From assembly GCA_964638145.1 (NCBI GenBank), contig CAZXAK010000041.1, positions 6,886-70,885 on the forward strand: a stretch of 64,000 nucleotides of DNA, read 5' to 3'. The notes beneath the pieces are model-generated. The model made no database searches. It worked only from the letters and a program-made list of their open reading frames with translations, and was not told where the DNA came from. Source of the DNA: an uncultured Desulfobacterales bacterium. GTDB lineage: Bacteria; Desulfobacterota; Dissulfuribacteria; Dissulfuribacterales; QOAL01. Within the stretch, counting starts at the first letter, position 1, and each line of letters starts with the position of its first letter. A program made the position numbers and the translations under genes. This document shows, piece by piece, positions 10,560 to 46,945 of this stretch.

Positions 10560-10691
10560 CCTAAATTGAGCCCTTCAAATCATGTGTAATTTGGTATGAT
10601 CTGCTGCGTTTAGGGCACTTGAGGTACTCCTGTACGTCAGTGTGTCCTCTGGCCTGCATCTCATGGGAACCTGGGAATCGTCCAATTTAGG
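10560..10691. mobile_element. 132-bp MITE-like element (end A + module X + end B) between carA and carB
   Basis: Terminal inverted repeats CCTAAATTG (10560-10568) and CAATTTAGG (10683-10691); its reverse complement aligns to 22786-22890 at 77/104 positions (hand count). Mobility is inferred. Confidence 0.7.
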
Positions 10692-10723
10692 TCTCTGTAA
10701 TGTGGGGTTTTGAGCAGTCATGA

Positions 10724-11857
10724 TTATGCCATCATCTTGGCAAAACGGTCAAAGAGATACTCTGAATCGTGTGGGCCCGGGGCATTTTCCGGATGGTACT
10801 GGACAGAGAAGGCAGGCAGCTTTCGGTGTCTTATGCCCTCTACCGTGTTATCGTTCAGATTTATGTGAGTTATCTCCACGTCGGAGGGAAGGGTGGACTG
10901 ATCCACTGCAAAGCCGTGGTTCTGCGCGGTTATCTCTATCCTTCCTGTGGAAAGGTCCTTCACCGGCTGGTTTCCACCCCGGTGACCGAATTTAAGCTTG
11001 TAGGTCGAGGCCCCTATGGCAAGGGACAGTATCTGGTGTCCAAGGCAGATGCCAAAGATGGGTACCTTTCCAACTAGTTCCTTGACGGTGGTGATGACCT
11101 GCTTTACAGCCGCAGGGTCTCCGGGGCCATTTGAGATGAATACACCGTCAGGACGCGTGTCAAGTATCTGCCCTGCCTGTGAGTCAGCGGGAAATACCAG
11201 GCATTTGGCCCCACGATTCGTAAAGAGTCTGAGCTGATTGTATTTCAGGCCGCAGTCGATTACCGTGATCCTGAATGATGCCCCTTGGGTCCAGCCCGTG
11301 CCGTTGCGGAATTCATCGAATATCCGCTGATCGCATGGGGCAGGAGCATTGTCCCTCCAGTAGTACGGTTCTTTGACGCTTACGATGGATGCCAGATCAG
11401 CGCCTTGCAGCCCTTGACTCTGTCTTGCCTTTTTCACCAGTGAATCCGCGTCAAGGTCTTCTGTGGACATGGCGGCCTTCATGGCACCTGCAAGACGTAT
11501 ATGCCTGGTGATCGCTCGTGTATCCACCTGCTCAATGCCCATTATGCCACGATCCTTGAGGTAGGATTCAAGTCCGCCCTTGGCCCGCCAGTTGCTGTAC
11601 TGGGCTTCGTGCTCGCGCACTACAAATCCGCTGAGATGGATGCCTGCGGACTCCTCATCTTCGTCGTTCACACCATAGTTGCCAATCAGGGGATATGTCA
11701 TTGTTACGATCTGACCCTTGTAAGAGGGGTCGGTCAGGATCTCCTGATAGCCGGTCATGCTGGTGTTGAAAACTATCTCACCAGTGGTCTCACCTCTTCC
11801 GGTAAACGATCTTCCCTCAAAGACCCGTCCGTCCTCAAGGGCGATTAATGCCTTCAT
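10724..11857 (-). CDS. carA: Carbamoyl-phosphate synthase small subunit
   Basis: GEIVFNTSMTGYQEILTDPSY, SNGPGDP, GICLGHQ, QYHPE triad. Confidence 0.99.
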   Translation of the reverse strand: MKALIALEDGRVFEGRSFTGRGETTGEIVFNTSMTGYQEILTDPSYKGQIVTMTYPLIGNYGVNDEDEESAGIHLSGFVVREHEAQYSNWRAKGGLESYLKDRGIMGIEQVDTRAITRHIRLAGAMKAAMSTEDLDADSLVKKARQSQGLQGADLASIVSVKEPYYWRDNAPAPCDQRIFDEFRNGTGWTQGASFRITVIDCGLKYNQLRLFTNRGAKCLVFPADSQAGQILDTRPDGVFISNGPGDPAAVKQVITTVKELVGKVPIFGICLGHQILSLAIGASTYKLKFGHRGGNQPVKDLSTGRIEITAQNHGFAVDQSTLPSDVEITHINLNDNTVEGIRHRKLPAFSVQYHPENAPGPHDSEYLFDRFAKMMA

Positions 11858-12241
11858 GTCAATATGCCTCTCCGGGAATTTTTTTGTCTGGTATTGAGGA
11901 GTGATTTTCTTGTGATGGTGATCAGCTCAAGATTCCCTCGGTTAAAATGGATCAAACTTTCATCTACGGTACTCCACCGGGCATGAAAAGTTACCGTGGC
12001 CAGCAGGCGTTTTTTGTGGTTCAGGGACTGAGCCTGTCATGCAGACAGGCAGGCTTTACACATCCGCCCCGATGCCTGTGTCTGGAATCCCCTGTTTAAT
12101 CTGAAAATTGCACGTTTATGTTTACACTTACAGGGCACGGAAACTATAAACGGGCAGGTTTGGCGCGTCAATAGCAGGGGCCTTGCTATTGGGCAAAGGC
12201 CTTGTCTATGAATGGTGGGCCTGTTTTGCCATGCATGGATG

Positions 12242-12272
12242 TTGACAACAAGACGAATGGATAATATATGAT
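12242..12272 (+). promoter_or_regulatory. Putative sigma70 promoter for tRNA-Pro
   Basis: TTGACA at 12242-12247; TATATG at 17-bp spacing or TATGAT at 19-bp spacing; tRNA starts at 12289. Confidence 0.5.
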
Positions 12273-12288
12273 ATCCACTTCGTCGTGT

Positions 12289-12365
12289 CGGGACGTGGCT
12301 CAGTCTGGTAGAGCACAGCGTTCGGGACGCTGGGGTCGGAGGTTCAAATCCTCTCGTCCCGACCA
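12289..12365 (+). tRNA. tRNA-Pro, anticodon CGG
   Basis: Complete cloverleaf: acceptor CGGGACG/CGTCCCG, D arm GCTC/GAGC, anticodon arm CAGCG-TTCGGGA-CGCTG, T loop TTCAAAT, encoded ACCA end; 77 nt. Confidence 0.98.
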
Positions 12366-12633
12366 CCCTTTATTCCCGCCCCTTAATCGTCTCCCCTGCT
12401 ACAGCAGATGATGAGATGATGCGCTTATCCTGTAACCTCTCCATGATTTGCCGCAGACACATACAGATATCCACAGGCTTTTTCTTTATGCCCGGTAGGG
12501 TATGAAGAAATCTCCATTTTCCCTGCACAAACAGTTTACAAATTCCATGATGTTCCGATATAAGAGATATTATAATGCTCTTGTTGTGTTATAGGACACC
12601 TGTTTTCCACAAATACAGGGAGGTGTATCCATC

Positions 12634-13419
12634 ATGATCCAGACTGGTGTACTGGTTTTTCTTGCGCTCGCTTTTCTTGTCTCTTCCGTAAAGGTTCTGA
12701 ATGAATATCAGCGAGGAGTCATCTTCCGCCTGGGACGTGTTATTGCCGCAAAGGGACCGGGCCTTATCATTCTCCTGCCTATCATTGATAAGATGATAAA
12801 GGTGGACCTGCGGACCATCACCCTTGATGTACCGCCGCAGGACATCATCACCAGGGATAATGTTTCGGTCAAGGTGAGCGCTGTGGTCTACTTCAGGGTG
12901 CTTGAACCAGTGAAGGCTGTGATAGAGGTTGAGAACTTCCTGTTTGCCACCTCGCAGCTTGCCCAGACTACACTCAGGAGCGTGTGCGGACAGGCAGAGC
13001 TTGACGAGCTGCTTGCCGAGCGAGAGAAGCTCAACAGCCGTATACAGACCATACTGGATATGGACACGGAACCCTGGGGGGTAAAGGTGAGCAAGGTTGA
13101 AGTCAAGGAGATAGACCTGCCTGATGAGATGAAGCGGGCAATGGCAAAACAGGCAGAGGCAGAGCGTGAGAGACGTTCCAAGATCATCAATGCAGAAGGT
13201 GAGTACCAGGCAGCCACGAAGCTTGCAGAGGCTGCGGAGATAATCGACAAGGCCCCTGCAGCCTTGCAGCTCCGCTATCTGCAGACCCTGAGAGAGGTAG
13301 CGGCAGAGAACAACTCCACTACCCTCTTCCCTATTCCCATAGACCTCTTCAAGCCCTTTGTAAAGATGATGCGCCAGAAAGATACAGCACAGCCTGAGCA
13401 GGACAAGACGGAAGCATAA
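12634..13419 (+). CDS. SPFH/stomatin (slipin) family membrane protein
   Basis: [56 protein letters not shown]; GGGAGG SD. Confidence 0.95.
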
Positions 13420-13428
13420 CCTATCGGC

Positions 13429-14271
13429 ATGATACTTCGATCCCGAAAACTCCTTGCCATTGACTGGCAGAGTGACGAATTTCCCACACTGCCCGGTGTG
13501 GCCAGGAAGGTCCTGTCCCTTCAGGGGGCTGAGGATGTGACACCCTCAGACCTGGAGGAGATCATTGGCCAGGATCCTGCCCTGACCATGAAAATCATGC
13601 AGGTGGTAAATTCCGGTTACTACAACCTGACCAGGCAGATCACATCTGTCCGTCATGCAATTACCCTGCTTGGCATAAAGCCTGTGATAGACCTGGCCCT
13701 GGGGGCAATAATGGCCAGGCGTTTCATGACAGTGCCAAGAGAGATGGAGCCATACGCCAAGAGGCTGTACAGGCACTGTATCACAACGGCCCTGTTTGCC
13801 AGGGACATGGAGTATGAGTTAGATGAGCCTGATCCTTATACACTTGGCCTGTTGCACGATATTGGATGGCTTCCCCTGATGTCCCAGGCCCCTGATGTGT
13901 TCATTTCCATGTTTGATGACAGCAACCTTGAGCGGGAGGAGCTTGAAGGCGCATGGGGTACGGATCACCAGCTATGGGGGGCAAAGCTCGCAGAGATATG
14001 GGATCTTCCTGATGCCTTTATGCTTACTGCCTACAGGCATCACAACCCCCTTCTGGAAACTGCACCGCCGTCTTTCCTGCTTCTCATAACCATGGCCCAT
14101 CACCTTGCAGATGCCGCTGGTCAGACCCTCTTCCTGAACGATGTGGAGCAACTTTCACCAAAGATTCCCGAGCTTGCAGGTATTGATCAGGAGACCTTTT
14201 ATGAGATGGAGGCTGCTGCGGTTAATGAGAAGGACAGGATAGCCACCCTGTGCAGCGTCATGCTGGCGTGA
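13429..14271 (+). CDS. Stand-alone HDOD domain protein
   Basis: PTLPGVA, IGQDPALTMKIMQVVNSGYY, ITSVRHAITLLG, GLLHDIG, HQLWGAKLAEIWDLP. Confidence 0.9.
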   Translation: MILRSRKLLAIDWQSDEFPTLPGVARKVLSLQGAEDVTPSDLEEIIGQDPALTMKIMQVVNSGYYNLTRQITSVRHAITLLGIKPVIDLALGAIMARRFMTVPREMEPYAKRLYRHCITTALFARDMEYELDEPDPYTLGLLHDIGWLPLMSQAPDVFISMFDDSNLEREELEGAWGTDHQLWGAKLAEIWDLPDAFMLTAYRHHNPLLETAPPSFLLLITMAHHLADAAGQTLFLNDVEQLSPKIPELAGIDQETFYEMEAAAVNEKDRIATLCSVMLA

Positions 14272-14398
14272 TTGGTATGGTTCATGTCTTTGGGGCGCAG
14301 TTATAGCTTGGCCCAAGATGCCTTTTGATGGCAAGGTAATGCTTATGGCCGTTTGTGAGGTATGGGTCTGACAGTAATTCAAGTTGAGAGCGGTCGTT

Positions 14399-15109
14399 AT
14401 GGACAATTGTCATAATGGTACTTGTTCGCTGCACCTCCCTTCTGTCCTCGTCTGGACCGCGCCATTTGTCCTGTATCTCCTGCTGACCAAGGCCATTTCT
14501 GTTGCGTCTGAGACCTGCTATCCCCTGCTTTATACCGTATGCGTACTGGTTACAGGCTCTGTTACCGTCTATCTCATGGTCACTGCAAGACCGGTAAGGC
14601 CCCATACACGAATCATTCCCGGTGTGATGTTCGGTCTCATAGGCATAGTCCTGTGGATATACCTGGACCGCCTTGGCGTGGAGCAGACCTTTTACAGGTT
14701 GCTCCCTGCTTGGCTGCTTCCTGATGCAAGGGTGGCGTTCAATCCCTTTGAGCAGATCAGGGATCCTGCGGTAAGGTGGCTGTTCATCCTTGTGAGAACC
14801 GCAGGTTTGGTGTTGCTGGTACCCCTTGCAGAGGAGCTGTTCTGGCGTGGATGGCTCATGAGGTGGATTATCTCCCAGGAGTGGGAACAGGTGCCTGTTG
14901 GCAAGTTTACCCTTGGTTCCTTCCTGGGGGTAACGCTTCTTTTCACCCTGGCTCACCCTGAGTGGCTTGCTGCTGCCGTTTGGTGTGTCCTGATCAACCT
15001 GCTTCTGTACTGGCGGAAGGATCTGTGGAACTGCATGGTTGCCCATGCTGTTACCAATCTGTGCCTTGTGGTCTATATAATGGTTTTTGATGTATGGAGC
15101 CTGTGGTAA
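14399..15109 (+). CDS. CPBP/CAAX prenyl protease-related intramembrane protein
   Basis: Multi-TM; FNPF...VPLAEELFWRGWLMR, FTLAHPEW, AHAVTNL. Start uncertain (TTG 14384 or ATG 14399). Confidence 0.85.
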   Translation: MDNCHNGTCSLHLPSVLVWTAPFVLYLLLTKAISVASETCYPLLYTVCVLVTGSVTVYLMVTARPVRPHTRIIPGVMFGLIGIVLWIYLDRLGVEQTFYRLLPAWLLPDARVAFNPFEQIRDPAVRWLFILVRTAGLVLLVPLAEELFWRGWLMRWIISQEWEQVPVGKFTLGSFLGVTLLFTLAHPEWLAAAVWCVLINLLLYWRKDLWNCMVAHAVTNLCLVVYIMVFDVWSLW

Positions 15110-15147
15110 CAGAATCCGCTGGTGGCCGGAAGGGAGATCACTCCGGC

Positions 15148-15693: not shown

Positions 15694-15700
15694 CAGACTT

Positions 15701-20260: not shown

Positions 20261-20995
20261 TCAGTGGTGCATGGTTACAGTCCTGAGGATTTCGTCCGAG
20301 GATATTACCCCCTGCCTGATGATCTTTACGGGGACAGTTGTCATGGCACCCTGCTGATGTACCGGCGTGGTGTCTGTTACATCAACAATGGTGGAGCAGG
20401 CCCCACTTGCCAGTCTTCCCCCGTCAAGCACAAAATCAGGGGCAGGAGAGACAAGCTGGCGCCTGACCTCTTCTGCGCTGACAGCAGCGGAACTGCCTGA
20501 TACATTGGCGCTGGTGGCCGTTATGGGTCTTCCAGCCGCGTGTACAAGGGCTGTTGCCCAGGGATTGCTGGAGATCCTTACTCCTATCTTTCCGGTCCCG
20601 CAGTGGAGTGGATAGGCGAGCCCCCGGGCCACTGGAAAGAGAATGGTGAGTGGTCCGGGCCAGAACCTGTCCATCAGCCTCTTTGCCATGTCTGGTACGG
20701 AATCCACTATGGAAGAGAGGTCTCCGATGTGGTCAATCAGCACCAACAGGGGCTTGTCCGCAGGGCGTTTCTTTATCTCGTAGATGTGTTTCAGCGCCTG
20801 GGGGTGGTCTGCCCCAGCACCCAGCCCGTAACTGGTTTCGGTAGGGAATGCCACCACGCCTCCCTGACGCAGCACCTCTGCCGCCTGTGATACAGCCTGC
20901 GTGTCAACAGGCCCTCCTGGACATGGTATCTCTTTGCAGTCCATCACGGCCGGGCCTCTGCGACTACGCACCGTTTCGTATACGTCCACTGTCAT
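20261..20995 (-). CDS. tsaC: L-threonylcarbamoyladenylate synthase (YrdC/Sua5 N-domain)
   Basis: [40 protein letters not shown]. Confidence 0.93.
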
Positions 20996-22764
20996 AGTTC
21001 CCTGTTTAGTTTTTCGATGTTGGCAGCCTGCGCAGCCCGAAATTCTTGTATTCGTCTTGCCACCTGTTCGTCAGTCACTGCTATGATCTGGGCTGCCAGC
21101 ATGGCGGCGTTTTTTGCCCCTGCCTTTCCAATGGCCATGGTTGCCACAGGAATGCCTGGTGGCATCTGGGCCGTGGAGAGCAGGGCATCCATTCCTCCAA
21201 GCGGCGATGCGTCAATGGGTACGCCTATGACCGGAAGCGTGGTATGGGCCGCAATGGCACCGGCGAGATGAGCGGCCATGCCGGCACCTGCAATCAGCAC
21301 CCTGATGCCCCTGTCCCGTGCGGTCTCTGCGAACTCTGCCGCAAGGGCGGGCGTCCTGTGTGCCGAGGCTATCCTGGTCTCATACGGGATACCCATGTCT
21401 TCCAGGACCTCCTGTGCACCTGCCATCACCTCCCTGTCACTCGGGCTTCCCATGACTATCCCTACCTGCGGGGCATCACCTGTGTGCCGCAGGGCCTTCT
21501 GGCCAATGTCCTTTCTGTAGTGCATGCCCTCCCAGGATATCTTTTCCACTGCCTCATAGGCCAGGTCGATGGCATCCTTTATGGTGTCACCAAGGGCCGT
21601 TACACCCAGCACCCGGCCGCCTGCCGTAACGTAGTCGTTGCCTGACCGGGCGGTACCGGCGTGAAATACCATGACATCATCCATGCCAGCCACCCTGTCT
21701 AATCCCTCAATCACCTTGCCCTTCTCGTAACTTCCGGGATAACCTTCAGACGCCAGTACCACGCATACTGCAGCACGTGGGTCCCACTCTATCTCAAAAT
21801 CGTGGAGCCGGCCTTCAATGGCCGCCTCTATTACATCTATGAGGTCACTCTTCATGCGCATAAGAATGGGCTGGGCCTCAGGGTCTCCAAAACGGCAGTT
21901 GAACTCGATGACCTTTGCCGTACCGTTCTTTATGATCAGGCCGCCGTACAGCACCCCTTCATAGGGACGGCCAGCGTCAGCCATTGCCTTTACCGTGGGG
22001 TTCATGATCATGTTCATGATCTGATGGAACAGGTCCGGATTTACCACAGGCGCAGGAGAGTATGCGCCCATGCCCCCTGTATTGGGGCCCCTGTCAAAGT
22101 CGAATACCGGTTTGTGATCCTGGGAGGTGGCAAGAGGGAGCACGTGTTTTCCATCGGTTATGGCCATGAAGGACGCCTCTTCGCCTGTGAGGAACTCTTC
22201 CACGATCATACGCTTGCCTGCGTCGCCGAATGCCCTCTGACGCATTATGGTATCAATGGCCTTTTCAGCCTCTTCAAGGGTGCTGGGGATGATAACCCCC
22301 TTGCCTGCGGCAAGACCGTCGGCCTTAAGGGCAACAGGTACGCCGGTGATGTTTTTTACATAATCCAGCGCCTCGTCAGGGTCTTCAAATACCTTGTATC
22401 TCCCTGTTGGGATCCCGGCGTTGCTCAGCAGTTCCTTGGTGAATACCTTGCTTGCCTCAATAGCTGCGGCCTTGGCAGAAGGACCAAATACCACCAGTCC
22501 CTTCTCCCTGAAGTAATCGGCGATTCCGTTTGCCAGCGGGTCTTCAGGCCCAACAATGGTGAGTCCGATCTGTTGATCAGATGCAAACTGGGCAAGGGCC
22601 TTCATGTCTGATGCCTTTATGTCCACACACTCCGCGTGCTGGCTGATACCAGCATTGCCTGGTGCGCAGAACACCTTCTCCACCCGCGGGCTTGCGGCAA
22701 GTTTCCAGCACAGGGCATGCTCTCTGCCGCCAGAGCCCACAACAAGAACTTTTCTGCAATCCAT
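20992..22764 (-). CDS. purD: Fused phosphoribosylamine-glycine ligase / N5-CAIR mutase
   Basis: PurD ([45 protein letters not shown]) continues in frame into PurE ([35 protein letters not shown]). Start moved to ATG 22764. Confidence 0.96.
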
Positions 22765-22785
22765 TTCCTCTATTCTCCTCTGAAA

Positions 22786-22890
22786 CCTGAATTGAGCGAT
22801 TCCCAAGTTTGCGTGAGGTGCAAGGCGGATGATACGCAGACGTACTGTTGTACTTCAGGTATCCGACAACGAAGCAGATCAAGCGAAATT
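22786..22890. repeat. Repeat copy (end B + module X, reverse orientation, end A absent) upstream of purD
   Basis: 22786-22805 CCTGAATTGAGCGATTCCCA is the exact reverse complement of 34222-34241; 77/104 identity to the reverse complement of the 10560-10691 element. Confidence 0.8.
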
Positions 22891-23034
22891 GGGAATCCAG
22901 CACCGGCCAGTCAATCTGCTTATACTACACCAGTTTTGCTGGGAATCAAACCGGAGGCATGAGTCTGGGGACATTATCCCCTGGCTTGAAGGTATCCATA
23001 ATGGTACTGGTTGGAGAGTAGGCCTGCTATACGT

Positions 23035-24111
23035 TTATGACGCCTGTCTCGGGCCTGAGTCCCTGACTTCACGGGTATTCTGGCCAAACAGCAGGTCTTT
23101 CAGGAAGATGACATCACAGGCCGCGTATGTGATGCTCACTATGAAGGCGGTAAGTATGAAGTTGTGGAGTGTGTGTTTTGAGCCAGTGGCCCAGCAGTAA
23201 ACCAGGGGCAGGAAGGCTGCAGGTACAAAAAATCTCTCTTTCCATCTGGTAAGGGTGGGGTGTCCCTGCTGCACTGCCCACATGTCCATGCCCTGTGAGC
23301 AGAATTCTACTGCTACAGCGGCAGTTATTATGCCTGCCATTGCCTGGGAGACCCCGGGGATGACAGCAAGCAGCGTAAGCGGCAGGGCAACAGATATGAA
23401 CAGGCCTGCAACAGCACCTGTCCCCCTTCTGATGCACATGGGAAGGGTGGCACGCACATACTGTGCGCCTGATGCCAGGGTGATAGCCAGTAATACCGCG
23501 CCGTAGATCACATTGGTGGTCTCTGTGGAGAAGAAGAGAAGGGGGAGCAGGCCGACTATCAGGAAGGTCATGGCTATGTAGAGCCGGGGGGGGACCCTCC
23601 CTGTTTTCATGCAGAACCAGGCTATGGCGCAGAATGTTCCGGCTATGGCGGCTGTGAGCAGGAAGTAGCTTACTGACTTGTCAGGAAAGGTGGCAGTGAG
23701 GAATATCAGGCCTATGCCTGTCATCTGCACGGTTGTCTTTATCTTTGCAAGTTCTGTGACCTTGAGTTCATTTCTGCCCGGGGTGAGGAATCTCCGCAGC
23801 TCCGTTACCACGAATTCCCTTAGAAAGATTGGCCATACCACCCACAGGGGCAGTATGCCGAGATGCAGCAGGGGGAGCAGTGTGACTGCTACGAATATCT
23901 TGTCTGCTATGGGGTCCAGCAGTCTGCCAAGGGGTGTGGTGCCGTATTTCCGCGCAAGGAGGCCGTCAAAGTAGTCTGTGAATCCAAGCAAGAACAGGAT
24001 TATCACTGCTGCCACCCTGGCGTTCTGGCCCTGGTATACTAGGAACCACGGCAGTGGCATGAGCAGTATGCGCAGAGAGGTGAGCTGGTTTGCAGTGATT
24101 ATCATCTTCAC
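23035..24111 (-). CDS. Extended CDP-alcohol phosphatidyltransferase family protein (358 aa)
   Basis: ANQLTSLRI, TDYFDGLLARKYG, GRLLDPIADK, REFVVTELR, KIKTTVQM, followed by about 170 extra hydrophobic residues. Confidence 0.88.
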   Translation of the reverse strand: MKMIITANQLTSLRILLMPLPWFLVYQGQNARVAAVIILFLLGFTDYFDGLLARKYGTTPLGRLLDPIADKIFVAVTLLPLLHLGILPLWVVWPIFLREFVVTELRRFLTPGRNELKVTELAKIKTTVQMTGIGLIFLTATFPDKSVSYFLLTAAIAGTFCAIAWFCMKTGRVPPRLYIAMTFLIVGLLPLLFFSTETTNVIYGAVLLAITLASGAQYVRATLPMCIRRGTGAVAGLFISVALPLTLLAVIPGVSQAMAGIITAAVAVEFCSQGMDMWAVQQGHPTLTRWKERFFVPAAFLPLVYCWATGSKHTLHNFILTAFIVSITYAACDVIFLKDLLFGQNTREVRDSGPRQAS

Positions 24112-31642: not shown

Positions 31643-33109
31643 TCAGTATTTTTTTCTGAAGACCGCGGCAAAAAAGCCGTCAGGTCCCTTTGGTTCAGGC
31701 AGGATGCGCAGGAATCCCTGGTCAGCTACGTACTTATGGCTGATATGCGGTAAGAGATGGTCTGCTCGCACCAGTTCCCATGAACCTGTTCCAAATTCGA
31801 AAAATTTTTCCACTACGCCGGTACCCTCTTCCCGTTCTGTGGTACATACTGCATAGACCAGGGTGCCCCCTGGTCTTAGCAGAGGCGCAGTGTCCGCAAG
31901 TATCTTGAGTTGCGTCTCCGAGAGCCTGCGACTGTCTTCAGGGGTCCTGTTCCACTTTATGTCAGGGTGTCTCCTTATGACGCCGAGTCCTGTACACGGG
32001 GCATCCACCATGATTCTGTCATAGATAGGGGCGGAGGAGGCCTTTTTTGCATTGAAGTCCGTGTGCCCCAATATGTTGATGCTTTCAAGTTGCAGTCTGG
32101 AGATATTTTCCGCAAGGAGCTTCAGCCTCTTTTTGCTGGTGTCATATGCGTCGATGCGGGCCTTGTCGCCTGTTATTTCGGCAATGTGGGTGGTCTTTCC
32201 CCCAAGGCCTGCACACACATCGAGTATCCTGTCTCCTGGTGCAGGGGTGAGCAGCAGGGAGATTAGTTGGGCCGATACATCCTGCACCTGAAAATATCCC
32301 TTTTCAAAGCCTGGAATTGATACTGGATTGCCTCTGAAGTCAGGAAGTATCAGGCCGTCAAAGGAGAGGGTTGAGGCCACTGCGTGTATGCCTGCCATGG
32401 CCAACTGCTCAATGGCCTTTTTTCGCGAAATTCGCAGACGGTTCACCCTGAGTGTTACAGGCGGTTGCTGATTCCCTGCCATGCAGATCTGTTCTGCTGT
32501 GTCCATGCCAAACTGCTGGCCCCACCTTTTGACCATCCAGGTAGGGAAGGAGTGGATGAGGGCAAGGCGTTCTGCCGCATCCCTGCCCTGCCTGGCCGCA
32601 TCATGAATCAGTGCCTTGCTGCCTATGCTGTCGATGTCGCGCAGAATCTGACGCAGCACCGCGTTGGTAAGGCCTGAGGCCCATGCCGCACCGCAGGTGC
32701 GACACGCCTTCACTGCCTCGTCCACAGCGGCAAAGGCCGGTATCCTGTCCAGAAAGAGTATCTGGTAAAGGGCTGTGATAATTATGGCCTTTACTATGGC
32801 AGGGAGCTTCGCGGGCTTTTTTAGCCTGTCATACGTAATGGTGGTAAGGAGCCGCAGGTGGCGGACGCAGCCTGTGACAACTTCCCCAAGCAGTGCCCTG
32901 TCCTCAGGGGAATCTGCCGGTATGCGGGTTGCCGCATCCTGTATCAGGACGTTCAGCGGAGGCCGATCTGACGTATTGGTCTCCTGCCATCTGGACAGGA
33001 GTCTTGCCGCAAGAGTACGGGCATTTGTTCCTGGCGTGGGTTTTGGTGATGTGCCAGCCGCCCTTGGGGAGAGCTTTCGGCCCTTTTTCCTACTCAAACC
33101 TCTCCCCAA
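31643..33109 (-). CDS. rsmB: 16S rRNA m5C967 methyltransferase (NusB-like + SAM domain)
   Basis: AAVDEAV, QVQDVSAQ, LDVCAGLGGKT, DAPCTGLG, YAVCT, DGFF. Confidence 0.95.
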   Translation of the reverse strand: MGRGLSRKKGRKLSPRAAGTSPKPTPGTNARTLAARLLSRWQETNTSDRPPLNVLIQDAATRIPADSPEDRALLGEVVTGCVRHLRLLTTITYDRLKKPAKLPAIVKAIIITALYQILFLDRIPAFAAVDEAVKACRTCGAAWASGLTNAVLRQILRDIDSIGSKALIHDAARQGRDAAERLALIHSFPTWMVKRWGQQFGMDTAEQICMAGNQQPPVTLRVNRLRISRKKAIEQLAMAGIHAVASTLSFDGLILPDFRGNPVSIPGFEKGYFQVQDVSAQLISLLLTPAPGDRILDVCAGLGGKTTHIAEITGDKARIDAYDTSKKRLKLLAENISRLQLESINILGHTDFNAKKASSAPIYDRIMVDAPCTGLGVIRRHPDIKWNRTPEDSRRLSETQLKILADTAPLLRPGGTLVYAVCTTEREEGTGVVEKFFEFGTGSWELVRADHLLPHISHKYVADQGFLRILPEPKGPDGFFAAVFRKKY

Positions 33110-34040
33110 CCTTTATGGGACGTCCCCTGAGAAATTCGGCGCAAGCAAGCCGTTTCTTGCCAGGCCACTGGAGTTCCTTCAGGGCAAGGCACTGTTCCCC
33201 GGTGGTAACTACTATACGGTCTTTCTCCACCTTGCAGATTGTTCCCGGTTGGGCATTGCCAGCGGGTATGTCCGTCATTGCAGGGCTGTATAGCCTGAGT
33301 CTCTGGCCTTTCCACATGGTATAGGCGCCAGGTGTTGGGTCCATTGCCCTGACTATGCGGTGGATCTGCTGTGCAGGCATCTTCCAGTCCACCCTTGCCA
33401 TCTCCTTCTTTATGGGCGGGGCCATTGTGACGCCCTCTTCAGGCTGGCTGATGGCCTCTAATTTACCCTCTGAGAGCAGGTCAAGGGCCTGGATGATCAT
33501 TTTTGCACCGAGATCGGCCATTCGTCGGTACAGGTTTCCAAAGGTTTCGTCCGGTCCGATATCAATGGCCTCCTGGAGCAGCATGGGGCCGGTATCCATG
33601 CCAGCGTCCATCTTCATGATGGTGATGCCTGTACGGGAAAGGCCATTGATTATGGCCCACTGTATTGGGGCTGCCCCCCTGAGGGCCGGCAGCAGGGACC
33701 CGTGGATGTTGATAGGCATGATGGACGGGATGTCGAGCAGTGACTGGGGAAGTATCTGGCCAAAGGCCGCCACCACCAGGAGGTCAGGGGCCATTTCTCT
33801 GATGGTATGGAGGAATTCAGGCTCCCTTACCTTTTCAGGCTGCAGGACCTTGAGCCCTGCCTCTTGGGCAGCGGTCTTTACCGGGGTAGGCGTGACCTTT
33901 CTGCCCCTGCCCTTTCGGCGGTCAGGTTGACTGACCACGGCACATATCTCATGCCGGCTGTCTGCAAGGGCATTGAGCGCCGGGACCGCGAATTCCGGGG
34001 TGCCCATGAAGACTATCCTGTAGTTCTTTTGTGATGTCAT
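33090..34040 (-). CDS. fmt: Methionyl-tRNA formyltransferase
   Basis: RIVFMGTPEFA, SQPDRRKGRG, NIHGSLLP, MDAGMDTG; start either 34040 or 34085. Confidence 0.97.
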   Translation of the reverse strand: MTSQKNYRIVFMGTPEFAVPALNALADSRHEICAVVSQPDRRKGRGRKVTPTPVKTAAQEAGLKVLQPEKVREPEFLHTIREMAPDLLVVAAFGQILPQSLLDIPSIMPINIHGSLLPALRGAAPIQWAIINGLSRTGITIMKMDAGMDTGPMLLQEAIDIGPDETFGNLYRRMADLGAKMIIQALDLLSEGKLEAISQPEEGVTMAPPIKKEMARVDWKMPAQQIHRIVRAMDPTPGAYTMWKGQRLRLYSPAMTDIPAGNAQPGTICKVEKDRIVVTTGEQCLALKELQWPGKKRLACAEFLRGRPIKVGERFE

Positions 34041-34124
34041 GCCCAACCTCCTGCGCCTCGGTTTTCTGCTCATCTTGAATGGCATCTATATACCGGATGG
34101 CCTTGACCCGGAACGATATTTTTC

Positions 34125-34241
34125 CCTGAATTGAGCGTTTCAAATCATGTGAAATCTTGTTTTGTCTTTAATTACAGTAAACTAATGCTGTTTTTTGTAA
34201 AATTGCCCGTCACCCAACGGGTGGGAATCGCTCAATTCAGG
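34125..34241. mobile_element. 117-bp MITE-like element (end A + module Y + end B) between def and fmt
   Basis: Perfect 13-bp terminal inverted repeats CCTGAATTGAGCG (34125-34137) and CGCTCAATTCAGG (34229-34241); 78/90 identity to the reverse complement of 39780-39869. Mobility is inferred. Confidence 0.75.
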
Positions 34242-38456: not shown

Positions 38457-39577
38457 GACAGATCAATCATCTCCTTGCCTGACGGGGCATGGGGTAGGAG
38501 GCCCCAGTGTATCATTTCATTGGCAATGGCACTGATCTCTGCCGGGTCAGGGACAAGATTTCTGTAAGACACCCTGTCTTTGGGTGAGGTAAGTACGTAG
38601 TCTATGAGGCCCTCTGGCAGGCCATAGGCAGCAGCCCCTGTCTTTGCTGCGAGGTGGCGGTGGGCCTCGATCCATCGTGCGCTTGCAAAAAATTCCCTGA
38701 TCAGTCTTCGTATGCGTTTACGGGACTTGCGCATGGCGGCCTCTCTTACTATTACCACGCTGGAGATGAAGCCCGGTGCCACATCCTTCATCTGTGCCAG
38801 TACCCTGCCTGTGCCAGAAAGTTCAGCCTGTGCCGCATAGGGTTCTCCTACAATGTAGGCGTCAATACCGCCAGAATCCAGGGCCGAGGGCATGTCTGGC
38901 GGGGGAATCTCCAGTATGTCCATGGTGTTGATATCCACGCCTGCCTGTGTACAAAGCTTTAGAAGTTCCAGATTCTGGGTGCTGAAGCGTATGGGTATTC
39001 CAACCCTCCTGCCTTCAAGCTGGGATATGGTACGGATGCCTGACCTGTTGCTTACCACAAGTGCAGTGCCATCCCTGTGGCCAAGAAGTACGATCTTGAT
39101 CCTAACCCCCTGTTCCCGAAGGGCAATGGCAATGGGGGCAAGGATAAATGCAATGTCGATCTCTCCACCCCTGACAGCATCTATCATGTCCGGCCAGGAG
39201 GAGAACTTTATGGTACGGAATTCCTGGTCGCTTCCCTTAAGCCTTGCCGCTGTTACAGGACAGATGAGGTGACAGGTGATGGGCAGAAATCCCACCCTCA
39301 GCATGGTATCCCTGCTCTCTGGATTGACCGGGCTGGCCCGAAAGGTATGCACAACGGTGATAAGTACAAGCCATGTAATGGCAAGTAGCACTGCCTTTAT
39401 GCCAGGTCCCATGGATTTTAGTTGGGAAAAGGGTTTCATAATAGAGGAATCGGCAAAGATGGAATGTGACTTGAGGTGTTGCAGCGGCAGTAGAGATGCA
39501 CTGGGCCTGTCTATGATATCCTGCCACTGGATACCTGCACTATACGGCAGATGGTGCCTTGCTAATTGTTTTTCCAT
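38447..39577 (-). CDS. NitT/TauT (CmpA/NrtA-like) ABC substrate-binding protein
   Basis: LRVGFLPITCHL, FSSWPDM, GHRDGTALVV, GIPIRFSTQNL, DAYIVGEPY; true start probably near 39439. Confidence 0.85.
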   Translation of the reverse strand: MEKQLARHHLPYSAGIQWQDIIDRPSASLLPLQHLKSHSIFADSSIMKPFSQLKSMGPGIKAVLLAITWLVLITVVHTFRASPVNPESRDTMLRVGFLPITCHLICPVTAARLKGSDQEFRTIKFSSWPDMIDAVRGGEIDIAFILAPIAIALREQGVRIKIVLLGHRDGTALVVSNRSGIRTISQLEGRRVGIPIRFSTQNLELLKLCTQAGVDINTMDILEIPPPDMPSALDSGGIDAYIVGEPYAAQAELSGTGRVLAQMKDVAPGFISSVVIVREAAMRKSRKRIRRLIREFFASARWIEAHRHLAAKTGAAAYGLPEGLIDYVLTSPKDRVSYRNLVPDPAEISAIANEMIHWGLLPHAPSGKEMIDLSWQ

Positions 39578-39779
39578 TTCAGGTGTACTGTAGTATGGCT
39601 ATGGGATAAAGAACGTATCTGCATGTTTACTGTTGCGCTGTTACAGATTATGATAAGGATTTTAGCGTGTTCATGCTGCAGGCGTTTGTTGGGCCCGGCC
39701 CCGCACGGATTTGCCATAGACAAGGGCGGGGTGGGCGGTCCCAGGGCTACCGATCTGCTGTGTAGGTCGGAGTCTTTGC

Positions 39780-39869
39780 TGGGAGACGGGCAATTTTACA
39801 AAACAGCATTAATCCTCTGTAATTACAGATAAGATAAAGTTTCACATGATTTGAAACACTCAATTCAGG
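39780..39869. repeat. Repeat copy (module Y + end A, reverse orientation, end B absent) upstream of hom
   Basis: Reverse complement aligns to 34125-34216 at 78/90 positions plus a 2-nt indel (hand count). Confidence 0.85.
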
Positions 39870-39923
39870 TCAAGGTGATTGCTGCACAGGAAGATCAAGG
39901 AAAACAGATTCAGGATTTGAGAT

Positions 39924-41243: not shown

Positions 41244-41495
41244 GTGTTAGAAGCGCCTCACCCTGTACACTCATGTCGAGGGTCCACCCATAAATGTTAA
41301 ATTTTGTTCTATGGCAGGGCACGAGGTGGTGGAAGGGTGGAGTGTGCCGGTTTGTATGGGCATCTTCCACCAAGGGGTAATGCAGTCATGGGGCAAAGTG
41401 GCCATTTGCGGAAGGACACTATCTAAGGGGTACGGACAATGAATGCAGAAAAACAGGCAACCCAGGAAGTGTTGAAGGATACTGAACAGGAGAAG

Positions 41496-42755
41496 ATGGA
41501 GCTTCCAAGTTCCAAGTATGTTGTCCTCATCGGAGACGGCATGGCAGATCTGCCATGTGATGAACTGGGGGGAAAGACCCCTCTTGAGGTGGCCAGGACC
41601 CCTGCCATGGATCGTCTGGCCCGGATGGGGGAGTTTGGCAGGGTACGTACCATTCCAGGGGGGTATCCGCCTGGCAGTGACGTGGCCAACATGTCCCTGC
41701 TTGGATATGACCCAAAGAAATATTATACGGGCAGGGGGCCGCTTGAAGCCGCTGCAATGGGCGTTAAGATGAATCCGGAGGACGTGGCCTTCCGCTGCAA
41801 TCTCGTTACACTCTCCTTTCGGGAGGGGCGGGTCTACATGGAGGATTACAGTGCGGGCCACATCAGCAATGAGGAGGCCCGGGCCCTGATCGAGGATCTG
41901 GCACCTCTTGTGGCAAGCCGCTCCTTTGAGCTTATACCAGGTGTGAGTTACAGGCATCTCCTCCTCTGGCGCGGCGGTCCGGAAGGGCTTGCCACTGTTC
42001 CCCCGCATGACTTCACTGGCAAGGATGTTACCGAGGCGTGGCATATCTATGAGGATGAGCCGTTGCTCTATGAGATACTTACCAGGGCCATCACCTTTTT
42101 CCACCGCCATCCCATCAATGACAAGCGAAGGGAAAGAGGACTCAATCCTGCCAATGCCCTGTGGCCGTGGGGCGAAGGCAGGAGGCCGGTGGTTGCCACC
42201 CTTACGCAGCAGTGGGACATAGAGGGTTCTGTCATTGCGGCAGTTGACCTGATCCGCGGCCTTGGTGTATGGGCAGGTCTCGAAGTGGTGAATGTGCCAG
42301 GTGCCACAGGTTATCTTGACACCAACTATCGCGGAAAGGCCGATGCGGCGCTGAAGGAGCTTCAGGACAAGGATCTGGTGGTGGTGCATGTGGAGGCCCC
42401 TGACGAGGCTGGCCATATGGGCAGTCTCAAGGAGAAGATCAAGGCCATTGAAAAGTTTGATCGTGAGGTGGTGGGGCCAGTGACAGATGGTCTGAGGGAG
42501 ATGGGCGGCGCATACCGGATACTGGTTGCTACAGATCATTTCACCCCTGTGAGTTTAAGGACCCACTCCGCAGGTCCTGTTCCGTTTGTGATCTATGACA
42601 GCATGAACCCGGTTGACAATCCTGATGCGGCCTGGAACGAGAAGGCAGCTGCCCAGAGTTCGCTCCTGATTGATGACGGCTACACTATAATGACGAGATT
42701 TATAGGGGTGGAGCCGAGATACGTGGAGCTTGATCCCAAGAAGAAGAAGCAGTAG
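41496..42755 (+). CDS. apgM: Archaeal-type cofactor-independent phosphoglycerate mutase family protein (candidate homoserine kinase)
   Basis: IGDGMAD, GKTPLEVARTP, GSDVANMSLLGYDP, GRGPLEA, VSYRHL, HVEAPDEAGH, TDH; start 41496 (CAGGAG) or 41439. Confidence 0.88.
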   Translation: MELPSSKYVVLIGDGMADLPCDELGGKTPLEVARTPAMDRLARMGEFGRVRTIPGGYPPGSDVANMSLLGYDPKKYYTGRGPLEAAAMGVKMNPEDVAFRCNLVTLSFREGRVYMEDYSAGHISNEEARALIEDLAPLVASRSFELIPGVSYRHLLLWRGGPEGLATVPPHDFTGKDVTEAWHIYEDEPLLYEILTRAITFFHRHPINDKRRERGLNPANALWPWGEGRRPVVATLTQQWDIEGSVIAAVDLIRGLGVWAGLEVVNVPGATGYLDTNYRGKADAALKELQDKDLVVVHVEAPDEAGHMGSLKEKIKAIEKFDREVVGPVTDGLREMGGAYRILVATDHFTPVSLRTHSAGPVPFVIYDSMNPVDNPDAAWNEKAAAQSSLLIDDGYTIMTRFIGVEPRYVELDPKKKKQ

Positions 42756-43183
42756 TGGCCCGCGGAGCAGTAATAGAACTGCAGGAACCTGTGCACAGGT
42801 TGCCATACCGTGTCCTTTATGGAGATACCGACAAGGCCGGTGTGGTGTATTACGGAACCTATATGAGGCTGTTTGAGGCGGGCCGCACAGAGTACCTCCG
42901 GGACCTGTGCGGCATGACCTACTCCGGAATGGAGAGGGAAGGAGTGCTTCTGCCCGTGACAGAGGCGTACTGTCGTTACAAGTCTTCCGCCCGTTATGAT
43001 GAGTTGCTCGAGATACATACTGCCATAGACAGTATCTCCAAGGTCTCCATAAGGTTCAACTACAGGATAGTTCATGAAGACTCTGAACGGTTAGTTGCTC
43101 AGGGTTACACGGTTCATGCGGCAGTAGGAAGTGATGGCAAACTGACACGGCTCCCCCAGTGGGTCCTCAGACTTAAATCCTGA
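42755..43183 (+). CDS. YbgC/4HBT family acyl-CoA thioesterase
   Basis: RVLYGDTDKAGVVYYGTY...EAGRTEY, YKSSARYDE. Confidence 0.9.
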   Translation: MARGAVIELQEPVHRLPYRVLYGDTDKAGVVYYGTYMRLFEAGRTEYLRDLCGMTYSGMEREGVLLPVTEAYCRYKSSARYDELLEIHTAIDSISKVSIRFNYRIVHEDSERLVAQGYTVHAAVGSDGKLTRLPQWVLRLKS

Positions 43184-43200
43184 GGCTGCGCGTTAATCCT

Positions 43201-44475
<1,275 letters not shown>

Positions 44476-44624
44476 CTATCTTTCTTTCCTGTAGTAGTGT
44501 CTCTTTTCTGTTGATGACAGCCTTGGATGGTGTATCTATAGCCAATAATGCCACAATGTTCAATGCGTGTTGTCCTGTATAGTCCCTGTTTCTTGGAGAG
44601 CTGGGTGGTTGATGCGAGCAAGAG

Positions 44625-45323
44625 TCATGGGGCAAGCATCACTCTTCTCGGCCTTAGATGTCCGAGCAGGTCAGCCATGCTTTTCCACTGGGTGTTGGTC
44701 AGGAGGTGTGTCCAGCCGCCAATATGGGCGGTTTTGCAGCATATGCTTGCCACTTTTTCCACGCGGCGGGCCAGGATAAGTTCTCTGCGTTGCCAATCAT
44801 CGGCCCTGAGATATGAAAGAGGGTGGATGATTTCACAGTGGTATGGAGGAGTTACTCTGCCCTTGACACAGTTATAGGCGTATATGCGCCGTTTTTCAAA
44901 GTATTGTTCAAGATCGAAGTCGGGTTCTTCTGTGAGAAGGTGCAGATTCCGCGTGTTAAGCAGTCTGTTGTGCCATCCAGGGAGTTCAGCCCTGGCAAAA
45001 TTGCCAGAATCTACTGGTATGCATCTGATCCCTGCCTCTGTGGCATAGTCACAGGCAGCTACCCATTCCCATGGCATGCGTAATTGACGAGTAAGGAGCC
45101 TGATCTCTGAATGTCCCCTGCGGCGTGGTGGCAGTGAACGGAGGTTACGTTTCAGGATGGTGAGCCATACGGGCATGGCCCTCTGCCTGAACCTTATGGA
45201 GAATCTGCTTATCTCCACAGTGATGACATCGGGTCTGATGTCCAGTAGCAGGCGTTTCAGCGCGGGACCAAGTGCCCTGTCCAGATGAAGGGAGCCGATC
45301 AGACATAACCGTGAGTTTTCCAT
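44625..45323 (-). CDS. Hypothetical protein, possibly TraB/Tiki/ChaN-like fold
   Basis: IGSLHLD, RPDVITVEIS, RRELILARRV, HIGGWTHL resemble the GxxH/PDxVxVE/RxxxM/GxxH pattern; starts 12 nt after the comM stop. Confidence 0.55.
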   Translation of the reverse strand: MENSRLCLIGSLHLDRALGPALKRLLLDIRPDVITVEISRFSIRFRQRAMPVWLTILKRNLRSLPPRRRGHSEIRLLTRQLRMPWEWVAACDYATEAGIRCIPVDSGNFARAELPGWHNRLLNTRNLHLLTEEPDFDLEQYFEKRRIYAYNCVKGRVTPPYHCEIIHPLSYLRADDWQRRELILARRVEKVASICCKTAHIGGWTHLLTNTQWKSMADLLGHLRPRRVMLAP

Positions 45324-45334
45324 GTCATGTTATG

Positions 45335-46867
45335 TCAGACAAGGGTGTTGCGGTCAAGACTTCTGTACTGTACTGCCTCTGCGAGGTGGTGGATCGCTAT
45401 GTACTCCTGACCCGCGAGGTCCGCTACAGTTCGGGCTATCTTTATGATCCTGTGAAAGGCCCTGGCGCTTAGTGCCAGCTTGTTGGCCACCTGCTCAAGG
45501 AAAGTCCGTCCTTCCCTGTCTATAACGCAGAAGGTGTCAATATCGCGGGCAGACATCTGGGCGTTGCTGTGAATGGTGGAGTTTTTGAACCTGCTGGCCT
45601 GCACACGCCGTGCTGCCAGCACCCTCTTGGCTATCTCTTCTGAGGATTCGCCCCGTCTGGACTCTGTGAGTTCATGGTAGGGTACGGCGGGTACCTCCAT
45701 CTGGATATCGATCCTGTCCATCAGAGGGCCTGAGATGCGTCCCCGATACCTCTGTATCTGGGCAGGTGTGCATGAGCACTGGTGGGCAGTATCCCCTGCA
45801 TGTCCGCACGGACACGGGTTCTGCGCGGCCACCAGGGTGAAGCGGGCAGGAAAGGAGACGGTTATGGCAGCCCTTGATATGGTAACAGAGCCATCTTCTA
45901 TGGGTTGGCGCAGACTTTCCAGCACGTTTTTCCTGAATTCAGGCAGTTCGTCCAGAAAGAGTACACCGTTGTGGGCAAGGCTGACCTGTCCTGGTTTGGG
46001 GATGGTGCCACCGCCTATAAGTCCGGCATCAGATATGGTGTGGTGTGGTGTGCAGAACGGCCTTTCCACCACAAGGGGTGTGTCCTGAGACAACAGGCCG
46101 GCCACACTGTATATGGCCGTGGTTTCAAGGGCCTCTTCAAAGGTCAGTGGGGGAAGTATGGATGGGAGCCGGCGTGCCAGCATGGTCTTGCCGGAGCCTG
46201 GGGGGCCGGTCATAAGAACGTTATGGGCACCTGCTGCCGCTACCTCAAGGGCGCGTTTCGCATGTTCTTGGCCGATGATGTCCCTGAAGTCATCTTGATC
46301 CTTCCTCGTTTTGCCAAGGATATCCTGAATGTCCACATCTGTTCTTGGAATATCCCCCTGTCCAGTGAGAAACTCCACCATATCTGCGAGATGTCCCACC
46401 GGATGTACTGCCACCTCCTTTACCACAGCGGCCTCTGAACCATTTTCCCTTGGGATTATCAAGCCATCCACAGGCCATGCCCTTGCCGCAAGGGCAATGG
46501 GCAGCGCGCCACGTGCAGGTTTTATGGTGCCATCGAGGGAGAGTTCACCTGCGCAGCAGAATCTGTCCAGCCGTTCCTGCGGGATGATACCTGCTATACA
46601 CAGGATTGCAGCGGCAATGGGTAGATCCAGCCCTGTGCCCTCCTTCTTTATGTCTGCCGGGGCGAGGTTTACGGTGATCTTCTGGGTGGGAAAGGGATAG
46701 CCACTGTTTTTTATGGCGGCCTTGACCCGTTCGCGACTCTCCCGTACCGGCCCTTCAGGCAGGCCAACCATGTTGAACGCGGGCAGTCCCGGGGATACAT
46801 CCACCTCGATTGAGATGGGAAAGGCCTTGATGCCAATAACGACTCCGCTCTTTGAATATGCAAGCAT
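45335..46867 (-). CDS. comM: ComM/YifB Mg-chelatase-like AAA+ ATPase
   Basis: VRESRERVKAA, NLAPADIKKEG, GPPGSGKTMLARR, SLAHNGVLFLDELPEF, NPCPCG, DRIDI. Confidence 0.93.
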   Translation of the reverse strand: MLAYSKSGVVIGIKAFPISIEVDVSPGLPAFNMVGLPEGPVRESRERVKAAIKNSGYPFPTQKITVNLAPADIKKEGTGLDLPIAAAILCIAGIIPQERLDRFCCAGELSLDGTIKPARGALPIALAARAWPVDGLIIPRENGSEAAVVKEVAVHPVGHLADMVEFLTGQGDIPRTDVDIQDILGKTRKDQDDFRDIIGQEHAKRALEVAAAGAHNVLMTGPPGSGKTMLARRLPSILPPLTFEEALETTAIYSVAGLLSQDTPLVVERPFCTPHHTISDAGLIGGGTIPKPGQVSLAHNGVLFLDELPEFRKNVLESLRQPIEDGSVTISRAAITVSFPARFTLVAAQNPCPCGHAGDTAHQCSCTPAQIQRYRGRISGPLMDRIDIQMEVPAVPYHELTESRRGESSEEIAKRVLAARRVQASRFKNSTIHSNAQMSARDIDTFCVIDREGRTFLEQVANKLALSARAFHRIIKIARTVADLAGQEYIAIHHLAEAVQYRSLDRNTLV

Positions 46868-46922
46868 TTGTTCAGAACTTCCGGTTTGTTTGTTGCAGTG
46901 TACAACTGGCGTGTTGCTGGGA

Positions 46923-46945
46923 CCTGAATTGAGCGTTTCAAATCA
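46923..46945. repeat. Solo end-A motif upstream of comM
   Basis: CCTGAATTGAGCGTTTCAAATCA is identical (23/23) to 34125-34147; no partner end found. Confidence 0.8.

Follow-up and report, generated by a model that had tools for sequence, protein, structure and literature searches.

A 64,000-nucleotide stretch of DNA from an uncultured Desulfobacterales bacterium (contig CAZXAK010000041.1, positions 6,886 to 70,885 of the forward strand; the window in what follows) carries a series of short intergenic repeats with common ends and two different interiors, and it raises the question of what these repeats are, what moves them and how one pair of ends came to enclose unrelated sequences. An initial annotation had described them as a non-autonomous element family that shuffles internal cassettes between its ends. 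[quoted passage not shown] Its parts differ in firmness. That the repeats are MITEs we regard as close to certain, and their assignment to the IS1380/ISEcp1-related insertion sequences (ISs) is favoured at somewhat better than even odds. What the data themselves show is the terminal repeats, the target duplication, the presence or absence of elements from one relative to another, their number of copies and their spread over several phyla.

The core of the shared end, CCTRAATTGAGYNNTTC, was matched seven times in the 64-kb window with at most 2 mismatches, whereas shuffled sequences averaged 0.47 matches and 0 of 100 reached seven; allowing 4 mismatches added no credible copy in the window. Reading of the loci and searches of the window reproduced all coordinates of ends and interiors given in the initial annotation. 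End A lies at 10560, 34125, 39869 (reverse) and 46923, and End B at 10672-10691, 34222-34241 and 22786-22805 (reverse). The tips of the elements are inverted repeats of ~17 bp, CCTGAATTGAGCG(A/T)TTC, and stand in inverted orientation in two complete elements. Element 1 (10560..10691, + strand, 132 bp) occupies the carA-carB spacer and is made up of End A (10560-10582), an interior module X and End B (10672-10691). Element 2 (34125..34241, + strand, 117 bp) occupies the def-fmt spacer and has module Y between End A (34125-34147) and End B (34222-34241), with TTTTC and TTTTT as its flanking 5-mers. Both modules recur: for Y, 34125-34216 and 39780-39869 are 85% identical over 92 nt (E 3e-22), and for X, 10588-10695 and 22782-22890 are 73% identical over 109 nt (E 2e-16), with a further piece of X, 3997-4050 against 22816-22868, at 76% identity over 54 nt (E 1e-5). 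No match between X and Y was found when the window was compared with itself. The flanking genes confirmed that every copy is intergenic (carA-carB, 5' of purD/E, def-fmt, ssuA-like/hom and yifB/groEL), and the neighbours are housekeeping genes, namely carA/carB, a purD-purE fusion, a pgsA-like gene, def/fmt, an ssuA-like gene, hom, yifB and groEL. Elements of 25-132 bp in the window, and complete relatives of 41-255 bp in other genomes, leave no room for an open reading frame (ORF). An Rfam scan of the window returned only a tRNA-Pro and no repeat, both at the gathering threshold and at E ≤ 1.

The other copies in the window are altered to different degrees. Element 3 (22786..22908, - strand), upstream of the purD/purE fusion gene, has End B (22786-22805), X and a far end, TGGGAATCCAGCACCGG, at 22892-22908; the copy had been listed as 22786-22890, and End B and X are indeed present there, but the element is whole, though decayed, and reaches 22908. 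Element 4 (39780..39869, - strand) occupies the space between the ssuA-like gene and hom, which are divergent, and is truncated, with End A (39847-39869) and module Y but without End B. The End A at 46923 is also present as described, yet it is not solitary: it belongs to a 25-nt mini-palindrome with both tips, CCTGAATTGAGCGTTTCAAATCAGG (element 5, 46923..46947, + strand), between groEL and yifB; when only the 23 nt 46923-46945 are counted as the unit, its flanks are TGGGA/GGGGA. Locus 6 (3964..4104, + strand) is a composite repeat without either end. The X copy recorded at 3968-4050 is X-type as claimed (3964-4050), but the repeated DNA spans 3964-4104 and includes a previously unlisted module, here called W, at ~4028-4104; a loose-end consensus of other X copies matches 3960-3995.

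The same end was found far beyond this genome. An exact scan for CCTGAATTGAGCGNTTC over one genome per species (596 Gb) gave at least 110 stretches, none of them from the window's own genome. A 16-base pattern is estimated to match a few hundred times by chance in 596 Gb, and many single matches in coding regions are therefore noise. Genomes with many matches included the Desulfobacterales metagenome-assembled genome (MAG) CAZQCK01, CAJVYQ01 (labelled Deferribacteres), several 'Deltaproteobacteria' MAGs and one Calditrichaceae MAG, as well as MAGs of Acidobacteriota and Holophagae, members of Chlorobiaceae and Fibrobacterota, and a Brocadiaceae genome. Desulfobacterota, Acidobacteriota, Chlorobi, Calditrichota and Fibrobacterota, among other phyla, all have the 17-nt end; it hardly varies between Desulfobacterota, Acidobacteriota and Chlorobi, and its conservation stops past position 17. 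Among the matches listed there are at least 62 inverted motif pairs 41-255 bp apart, two of them the window elements and 60 elsewhere, with interiors that are common within a lineage and unrelated between lineages.

These pairs revealed the target-site duplication. In the 57 pairs from other genomes that had enough flank, among the matches listed, the flanking 5-mers were identical in 30 and agreed at four of five positions in 12 more, against 0 identical in shifted controls, and the same pairs gave no duplication signal at k = 3, 4, 6 or 7. The duplicated 5-mer is AT-rich, with the consensus T-W-N-W-A (T first in 26/30, A last in 23/30). The initial annotation had seen neither a transposase nor a consistent target-site duplication. 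The former observation stands, as no transposase was found in the window among the listed ORFs, among ten further ORFs or with an IS1380 hidden Markov model (HMM); the latter does not, because a clear 5-bp duplication exists family-wide and has decayed in the window.

Relatives of the host preserve empty sites. Related metagenome contigs, ~88-91% identical to the window, lack 10557-10693, that is, 137 nt or the 132-bp element 1 plus 5, and in the related metagenome runs X2-X4 the joints run from 10556 to 10694 and from 10553 to 10694. As read from the sequence, the decayed duplication of element 1 consists of TTTTT on the left (10555..10559) and TCTCT on the right (10692-10696), and the empty site of relative X4 has a single 5-mer, TGTCT. 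Sequence alignment showed a carA-carB spacer of 39 nt in the related MAG GCA_053991135.1 versus 175 nt in the window. X4 also skips 22773-22911 (element 3) and, at element 5, is without 25 nt at 46920 and 4 more nt at 46946. The motif is absent throughout 21 kb of the relative GCA_054039495.1 (L252) that are syntenic with the window at ~30-43 kb, a part that takes in element 2; element 4 is missing from its orthologous ssuA-like/hom spacer. Terminal inverted repeats, 5-bp duplication and empty orthologous sites together sustain the claim of a non-autonomous transposable family. The family probably expanded after this lineage had split from its ~90%-identical relatives.

Further differences between the window and these relatives were noted in passing. 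The def-fmt spacer of L252 is 170 nt long and unrelated to that of the window. The fmt ORF as listed (33090-34085, - strand) begins 22 residues ahead of the family profile; if translation in fact starts further downstream, as it may, the def-fmt spacer would exceed 174 nt. X4 also skips or replaces 41246-41381, 39485-39602, 4613-4732 and 14272-14437 of the window, none with MITE ends; 41246-41381 and 4613-4732 are intergenic, and 39485-39602 and 14272-14437 overlap the ends of listed ORFs. Synteny with L252 breaks after a 4HBT thioesterase gene, with dnaG and a sigma-70 gene beyond 13152 in L252 and serS beyond ~43200 in the window.

Copy number was estimated in the source metagenome, from a hydrothermal vent, by comparing summed contig depth with a single-copy baseline of ~16. 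Depth rose from ~16 to 2700-4650 exactly at 34125 and was at baseline again at ~34245; it likewise rose to 3000-5700 at 22785/22786 and was back at baseline at 22911. Depth over the ends was 4650-5700, about 300 times the single-copy value, and the loci tested ranged from 1300 to 5700, with 97-153 contigs aligned per locus; taken together, the ratio to single-copy depth is about 100-300. At locus 6 it was 150-300 over 3964-4027 and up to 1860 over 4036-4075, in module W, the most abundant part. The 21 listed copy-bearing contigs of reasonable coverage had a depth of 9-18, as has the window's genome, and three short low-coverage copy-bearing records had a depth unlike it. Given the depth ratio and copy-bearing contigs at the genome's own depth, the genome holds ~100-300 copies, which fits seven ends per 64 kb and bears out the earlier expectation of many copies genome-wide. 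The depth steps at 34125 and 22785/22786 also support the element boundaries independently.

The next part of the question concerns the two interiors. Among the complete elements in the matches listed, 18 combine one A-type end (..GAGCGTTTCA..) and one B-type end (..GAGCGATT[GCT]..), 32 have two B-type and 4 two A-type ends; the 18 A-B elements are from other Desulfobacterota. The two types are not equivalent; they pair as the left and right inverted repeats (IRL and IRR) would if they came from a parent IS. Every Y copy of the window is joined to End A (elements 2 and 4), X is joined to End B in elements 1 and 3, and element 1 retains only the first ~44 nt found after End A in element 2. The source metagenome contains a graded series in which End A and End B are separated by T, by CT, by 20 nt or by the last 24 nt of X, and element 5 is a 25-nt unit that retains the two tips only. 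The simplest reading would be that the subtypes arose by deletion from one ISEcp1-like parent IS, different internal deletions having kept more of its left part (Y) or more of its right part (X). End A with Y would then form the left end of the parent, namely IRL followed by an untranslated leader with the hairpin of the ISEcp1 clade, and X with End B the right one. The interiors had been called unrelated; X and Y do not match, but they are best read as putative left and right remnants of a single lost ISEcp1-like IS, and the shuffling of internal cassettes that had been proposed is not needed, given the inequivalent ends, the Y-End A and X-End B linkage, the hairpin and the graded deletions.

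Exchange of cassettes was nevertheless weighed as the best surviving of the competing explanations. It would hold that unrelated cassettes (X, Y and W) are actively exchanged between fixed ends by recombination, by nested insertion or by capture of foreign DNA between solo ends. The lack of similarity between X and Y speaks for it, as do the quite different interiors that the same ends enclose in other phyla; yet every Y copy abuts End A, in elements 1 and 3 X abuts End B, and in other lineages A- and B-type ends pair as IRL and IRR. Some Y copies in the metagenome run into different sequence at the position of End B (loose ends, 34222), which also favours exchange; against it, the variants form a nested deletion series, Y holds the IS-leader hairpin at the expected offset, and neither X nor Y is bounded by internal repeats or duplications. 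We therefore consider exchange unlikely as the source of the subtypes. Locus 6 also speaks for exchange, as an X-type interior is joined there to the abundant W with neither end; because of this junction, some recombination or nesting among copies must also occur. A weak inverted similarity between 3964-3980 and 4088-4104 was also seen at this locus, and hints that W may represent a second MITE family.

Deletion from an ISEcp1-like parent implies kinship with a known IS family, and this was examined at the ends and at the hairpin. ISfinder describes IS1380-family ends as starting with CC and the target duplication as 4-5 bp, and the CCTG.. ends and 5-bp duplication of the MITEs agree with both descriptors. 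The duplication of ISEcp1 itself is 5 bp, TATGA, of the T...A type (PMC2887853). We verified the ends of ISEcp1 on two plasmids as IRL CCTAGATTCTACGTCAG and, reading inward, IRR CCTAAATTCCACGTGTG. The IRR (CCTAAATTCCACG) has 10 of 13 positions in common with CCTAAATTGAGCG, a frequent variant of the MITE end; the first 8 nt, CCTAAATT, are identical, and positions 9-11 differ (GAG versus CCA). The nearest sister clades, 31-38% identical to ISEcp1, have the ends CCTGAAAATTGCGATAG (P0410/P0257 clade), CCCGAAAATTGCGATAG and CCTGAAAACTGCAACAA, and an ungapped comparison of CCTGAAAATTGCGATAG with the MITE end CCTGAATTGAGCGATTC gives 11 identical positions out of 17. Other IS1380 clades examined differ in having CCCGC... 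ends and 4-bp YTAR duplications, and the CCCGC type has no identity to the MITE ends. The comparison of ends, which covered IS1380-family clades, is suggestive of kinship.

ISEcp1 and IS1380 elements (PF13701, NF033539) resemble the MITEs in their CC ends, in a 5-bp AT-rich T...A duplication and in a left subterminal hairpin, TCACCCAWYGGGTG, but unlike the MITEs they encode a transposase. In element 2 the hairpin, TCACCCAACGGGTG, lies within module Y (34210..34223, + strand), with GTCACCCAACGGGTGGGA at 87-99 nt from End A. Counted from the left tip, the clade hairpin TCACCCAAYGGGTG is found at 77-89 nt in ISEcp1, at 86-98 nt in an environmental IS with a transposase 84% identical to that of ISEcp1 (ends CTCGCATTCTACGTC and CCGGAATTCCACGTC), and at 87-99 nt in element 2. 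ISEcp1 and the environmental IS share it in the form TTTCACCCA(T/A)TGGGTGAAAG, and a 232-bp Desulfobacteraceae MITE (L005) carries TTTCACCCCTTGGGTGAAAAGCG. The motif has 8 matches on both strands in 859 kb, or ~4 palindromic sites, of which 2 are within MITEs. The remainder of Y gave no convincing alignment. From the CC ends, the 5-bp duplication, the end identity of 10/13 to 11/17 and the hairpin we infer an IS1380 parentage; it is an inference because no transposase with exactly matching ends was found.

If this parentage is correct, a DDE transposase encoded elsewhere would recognise the ~17-bp tips, excise or copy the element and insert it at AT-rich T-N3-A sites, where a 5-bp staggered cut would produce the 5-bp duplication. 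The enzyme would most likely be of the IS1380 family, either within the ISEcp1 clade or close beside it, and would act in trans. The MITE family settled in intergenic and intra-operon spacers, with transcripts that can fold into long hairpins.

Transposases 84-90% identical to that of clinical ISEcp1 were seen to be widespread in environmental metagenomes (P0123-P0240; L209-L218), and also occur in MAGs labelled ANME-2 archaeon and Labilibaculum; these environmental relatives share with ISEcp1 the hairpin TTTCACCCAWTGGGTGAAAG upstream of the transposase gene. In IS1380 elements of the P0410/P0392 clade (L244-L249, L240 and L242), TAATTA stands on both sides wherever both flanks are readable, and may represent a palindromic target of 6 bp or else a continuation of the terminal repeat.

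The search for an IS or RAYT-type transposase gene with matching ends, which the initial annotation had suggested, found none in the loci and clades searched. The IS1380 HMM, run over 2385 ORFs of the listed loci, matched only locus L072. Translation of 23 ORFs beside unpaired motifs gave the same L072 IS1380 transposase and otherwise no product with the look of a transposase. The motif was absent from 80 metagenome loci of the L072-type IS1380 clade, and the ends in the ISEcp1 clade and three sister clades were similar but in no case identical. In viral contigs, a motif scan gave 5 matching stretches, none with a paired end, and a protein scan gave 13 relatives, almost all of them either ISEcp1 or near to it; the matches of a tblastn search of plasmids were likewise swamped by ISEcp1 itself. 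A full-text literature search for the end sequence returned unrelated primer sequences only and no description, and a search on IS1380 together with MITE returned no paper on IS1380-derived MITEs.

L072 was considered as an autonomous element since, at L072:5181-7080, two CCTGA(A/G)TTGAGCG ends 1.9 kb apart enclose an IS1380 transposase (NF033539, 388 bits). It was rejected. The IS carries ends of its own, written CCCGC..TTTCTCACC or CCCGC(C/A)T(T/A)T(C/T)TCACC, with a CTAG duplication (4 bp, YTAR); ten independent insertions of an 85%-identical IS (L192-L201) have such ends and such a duplication and are without the outer motif; and the outer halves together are a 161-bp MITE found intact in L105. 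L072:5261-7005, in the Acidobacteriota MAG CBDAPI010000003.1, is a 1.75-kb IS1380 IS located in CTAG at the centre of that MITE. Long motif pairs in L075 (1.5 kb) and L082 (2.0 kb), and motifs 3.5 kb apart in L077, were also rejected, as they bracket ordinary host genes and belong to separate MITEs. The gene between the two MITEs at L075:664-2136 (Desulfobacterales MAG CAZQCK01) is of the CDP-alcohol phosphatidyltransferase type, and a pgsA-like gene (23035-24111) adjoins element 3 in the window.

Several results weigh against the explanation that we favour. Neither the window nor the at least 110 genome loci, five IS1380 clades and viral contigs searched yielded an autonomous element with exactly these ends, and the only transposase seen between two such ends is that of L072, an unrelated IS which inserted into a MITE and so mimics an autonomous element. 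An end similarity of 10/13 to 11/17 together with one 14-nt hairpin is suggestive of IS1380 parentage but is not proof of it. Module X, taken as the presumptive right end of the parent, resembles none of the IS right ends examined, and a pure deletion model does not account for locus 6, where X is joined to a module that has neither type of end. Finally, the target duplications of the two complete window elements have decayed to 3/5 and 4/5.

The family nevertheless has every structural feature of a MITE except a known partner, and in this it resembles the Correia elements of Neisseria, an accepted MITE that is likewise without a cognate autonomous element. The Correia elements, which are short, abundant and intergenic, have terminal inverted repeats and fall into several size classes that arise by internal deletion; they are often co-transcribed with their neighbours as hairpins, and they have 25-26-bp repeats and a TA duplication. 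To our knowledge, no cognate transposase is known for them and they occur in one genus only. Their repeats are unrelated in sequence to those described here, whose ends occur in several phyla. Another MITE from a member of the former Deltaproteobacteria, Chunjie of Geobacter uraniireducens, has copies that vary in size, are mostly intergenic and can insert within an operon without breaking it (PMC10969869). Chunjie has 21-bp repeats, 9-bp direct repeats and a length of 178-235 bp (PMC3184786), and our family, with ~17-bp repeats and a 5-bp duplication, is therefore distinct from it.

A more speculative version of the MITE reading would make the family an orphan superfamily that spans phyla, served by an unrecognised sister clade of ISEcp1 or by a single-copy, unlinked (domesticated) transposase, with operon copies perhaps co-opted as RNA hairpins or donors of ribosome-binding sites. 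We regard this version as doubtful, and no result here indicates host use of the elements.

Mobilisation by another family that makes ~5-bp duplications, such as IS1634, ISH3 or Tn3, the last yielding TIME-like elements, is decidedly unlikely, even though no cognate IS1380 element was found. Duplications are 5-6 bp for IS1634 and 4-5 bp for ISH3 in the ISfinder family table, and so would suit the family; Tn3-family ends are ~38 bp long and begin with GGGG. The ends of our family are ~17 bp and start with CCTG, and it is accordingly not Tn3-derived. This holds although TIMEs and other Tn3-derived elements are also non-autonomous, carry terminal inverted repeats and can form mosaics, their parent Tn3-like transposons produce 5-bp duplications (PMC2887853), and the duplications of Tn3 elements and their miniature derivatives are AT-rich as well (PMC2887853; see also PMC4133298). 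The end identity to ISEcp1 and its sister clades, in a comparison that covered IS1380-family ends, and the shared subterminal hairpin point to IS1380.

Elements 1 and 2 lie inside the gene pairs carA-carB and def-fmt and would be co-transcribed with them. Their predicted RNA folds are stable (-35.3 kcal/mol, z -2.7 for element 1; -34.8 kcal/mol, z -5.5 for element 2), with the two tips forming a basal stem. The tip of element 1 and its A-rich flank create AGGAAAAATCAACC directly before the ATG of carB, where the empty site of the relative reads ACAGACTACCAACC. One could accordingly suppose that the repeats are not mobile at all but are functional cis-elements kept by selection, whether operator, promoter, terminator, small RNA or RNA leader: copies in the window precede start codons by 11-56 nt, TTGAAA occurs within End A, both complete elements fold stably as RNA, and element 1 supplies AGGA before the carB start codon. 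We consider this highly improbable, as the orthologous genes of relatives are entirely without the elements, which moreover have flanking duplications, occur in both orientations and adjoin functionally unrelated genes, with no Rfam match at E ≤ 1 and no site in a promoter and terminator scan of element 2. Still more remote are REP/BIME-like palindromes (repetitive extragenic palindromes and the interspersed mosaic elements built from them) spread by a single-copy HUH (RAYT) transposase instead of a DDE enzyme. The intergenic setting, abundance and palindromic, mosaic make-up of our elements speak for this, as does the absence of a linked transposase, and REP/BIME elements are likewise abundant intergenic palindromes in mosaics of few modules. 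REPs, however, are RAYT-dependent hairpins of 20-40 nt with a 5' GTAG and are not known to make a target duplication or to have long-range terminal repeats, whereas our family has long-range terminal inverted repeats, a clean 5-bp duplication and precise empty sites, and no IS200-like gene was found among the window ORFs examined.

The element type is well known, and how MITEs work is not seen differently through these results; what stands out is the abundance of the family, the near-invariant 17-nt end across phyla and the apparent kinship with the ISEcp1 lineage. A family of about a hundred or more insertions breaks the assemblies of its host and relatives, many contigs of which end at the repeats, and it inflates intergenic spacers such as carA-carB. 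The recurrence of one 17-nt end in several anoxic-sediment phyla points to a widely shared transposase that is not paired with its passengers. The likeness of end and hairpin would tie the family to environmental relatives of ISEcp1, the mobiliser of CTX-M and CMY beta-lactamase genes.

Two genes of the window deserve a brief record. The purD and purE genes are fused in a 590-aa ORF (20992-22764, - strand), in which TIGR00877 covers residues 5-425 and TIGR01162 residues 434-589. A large ORF at 19-3375 (+ strand) contains DGDGDLD-type repeat units (direct-repeat family D1, 1865-3032) that are reminiscent of FG-GAP/VCBS repeats.

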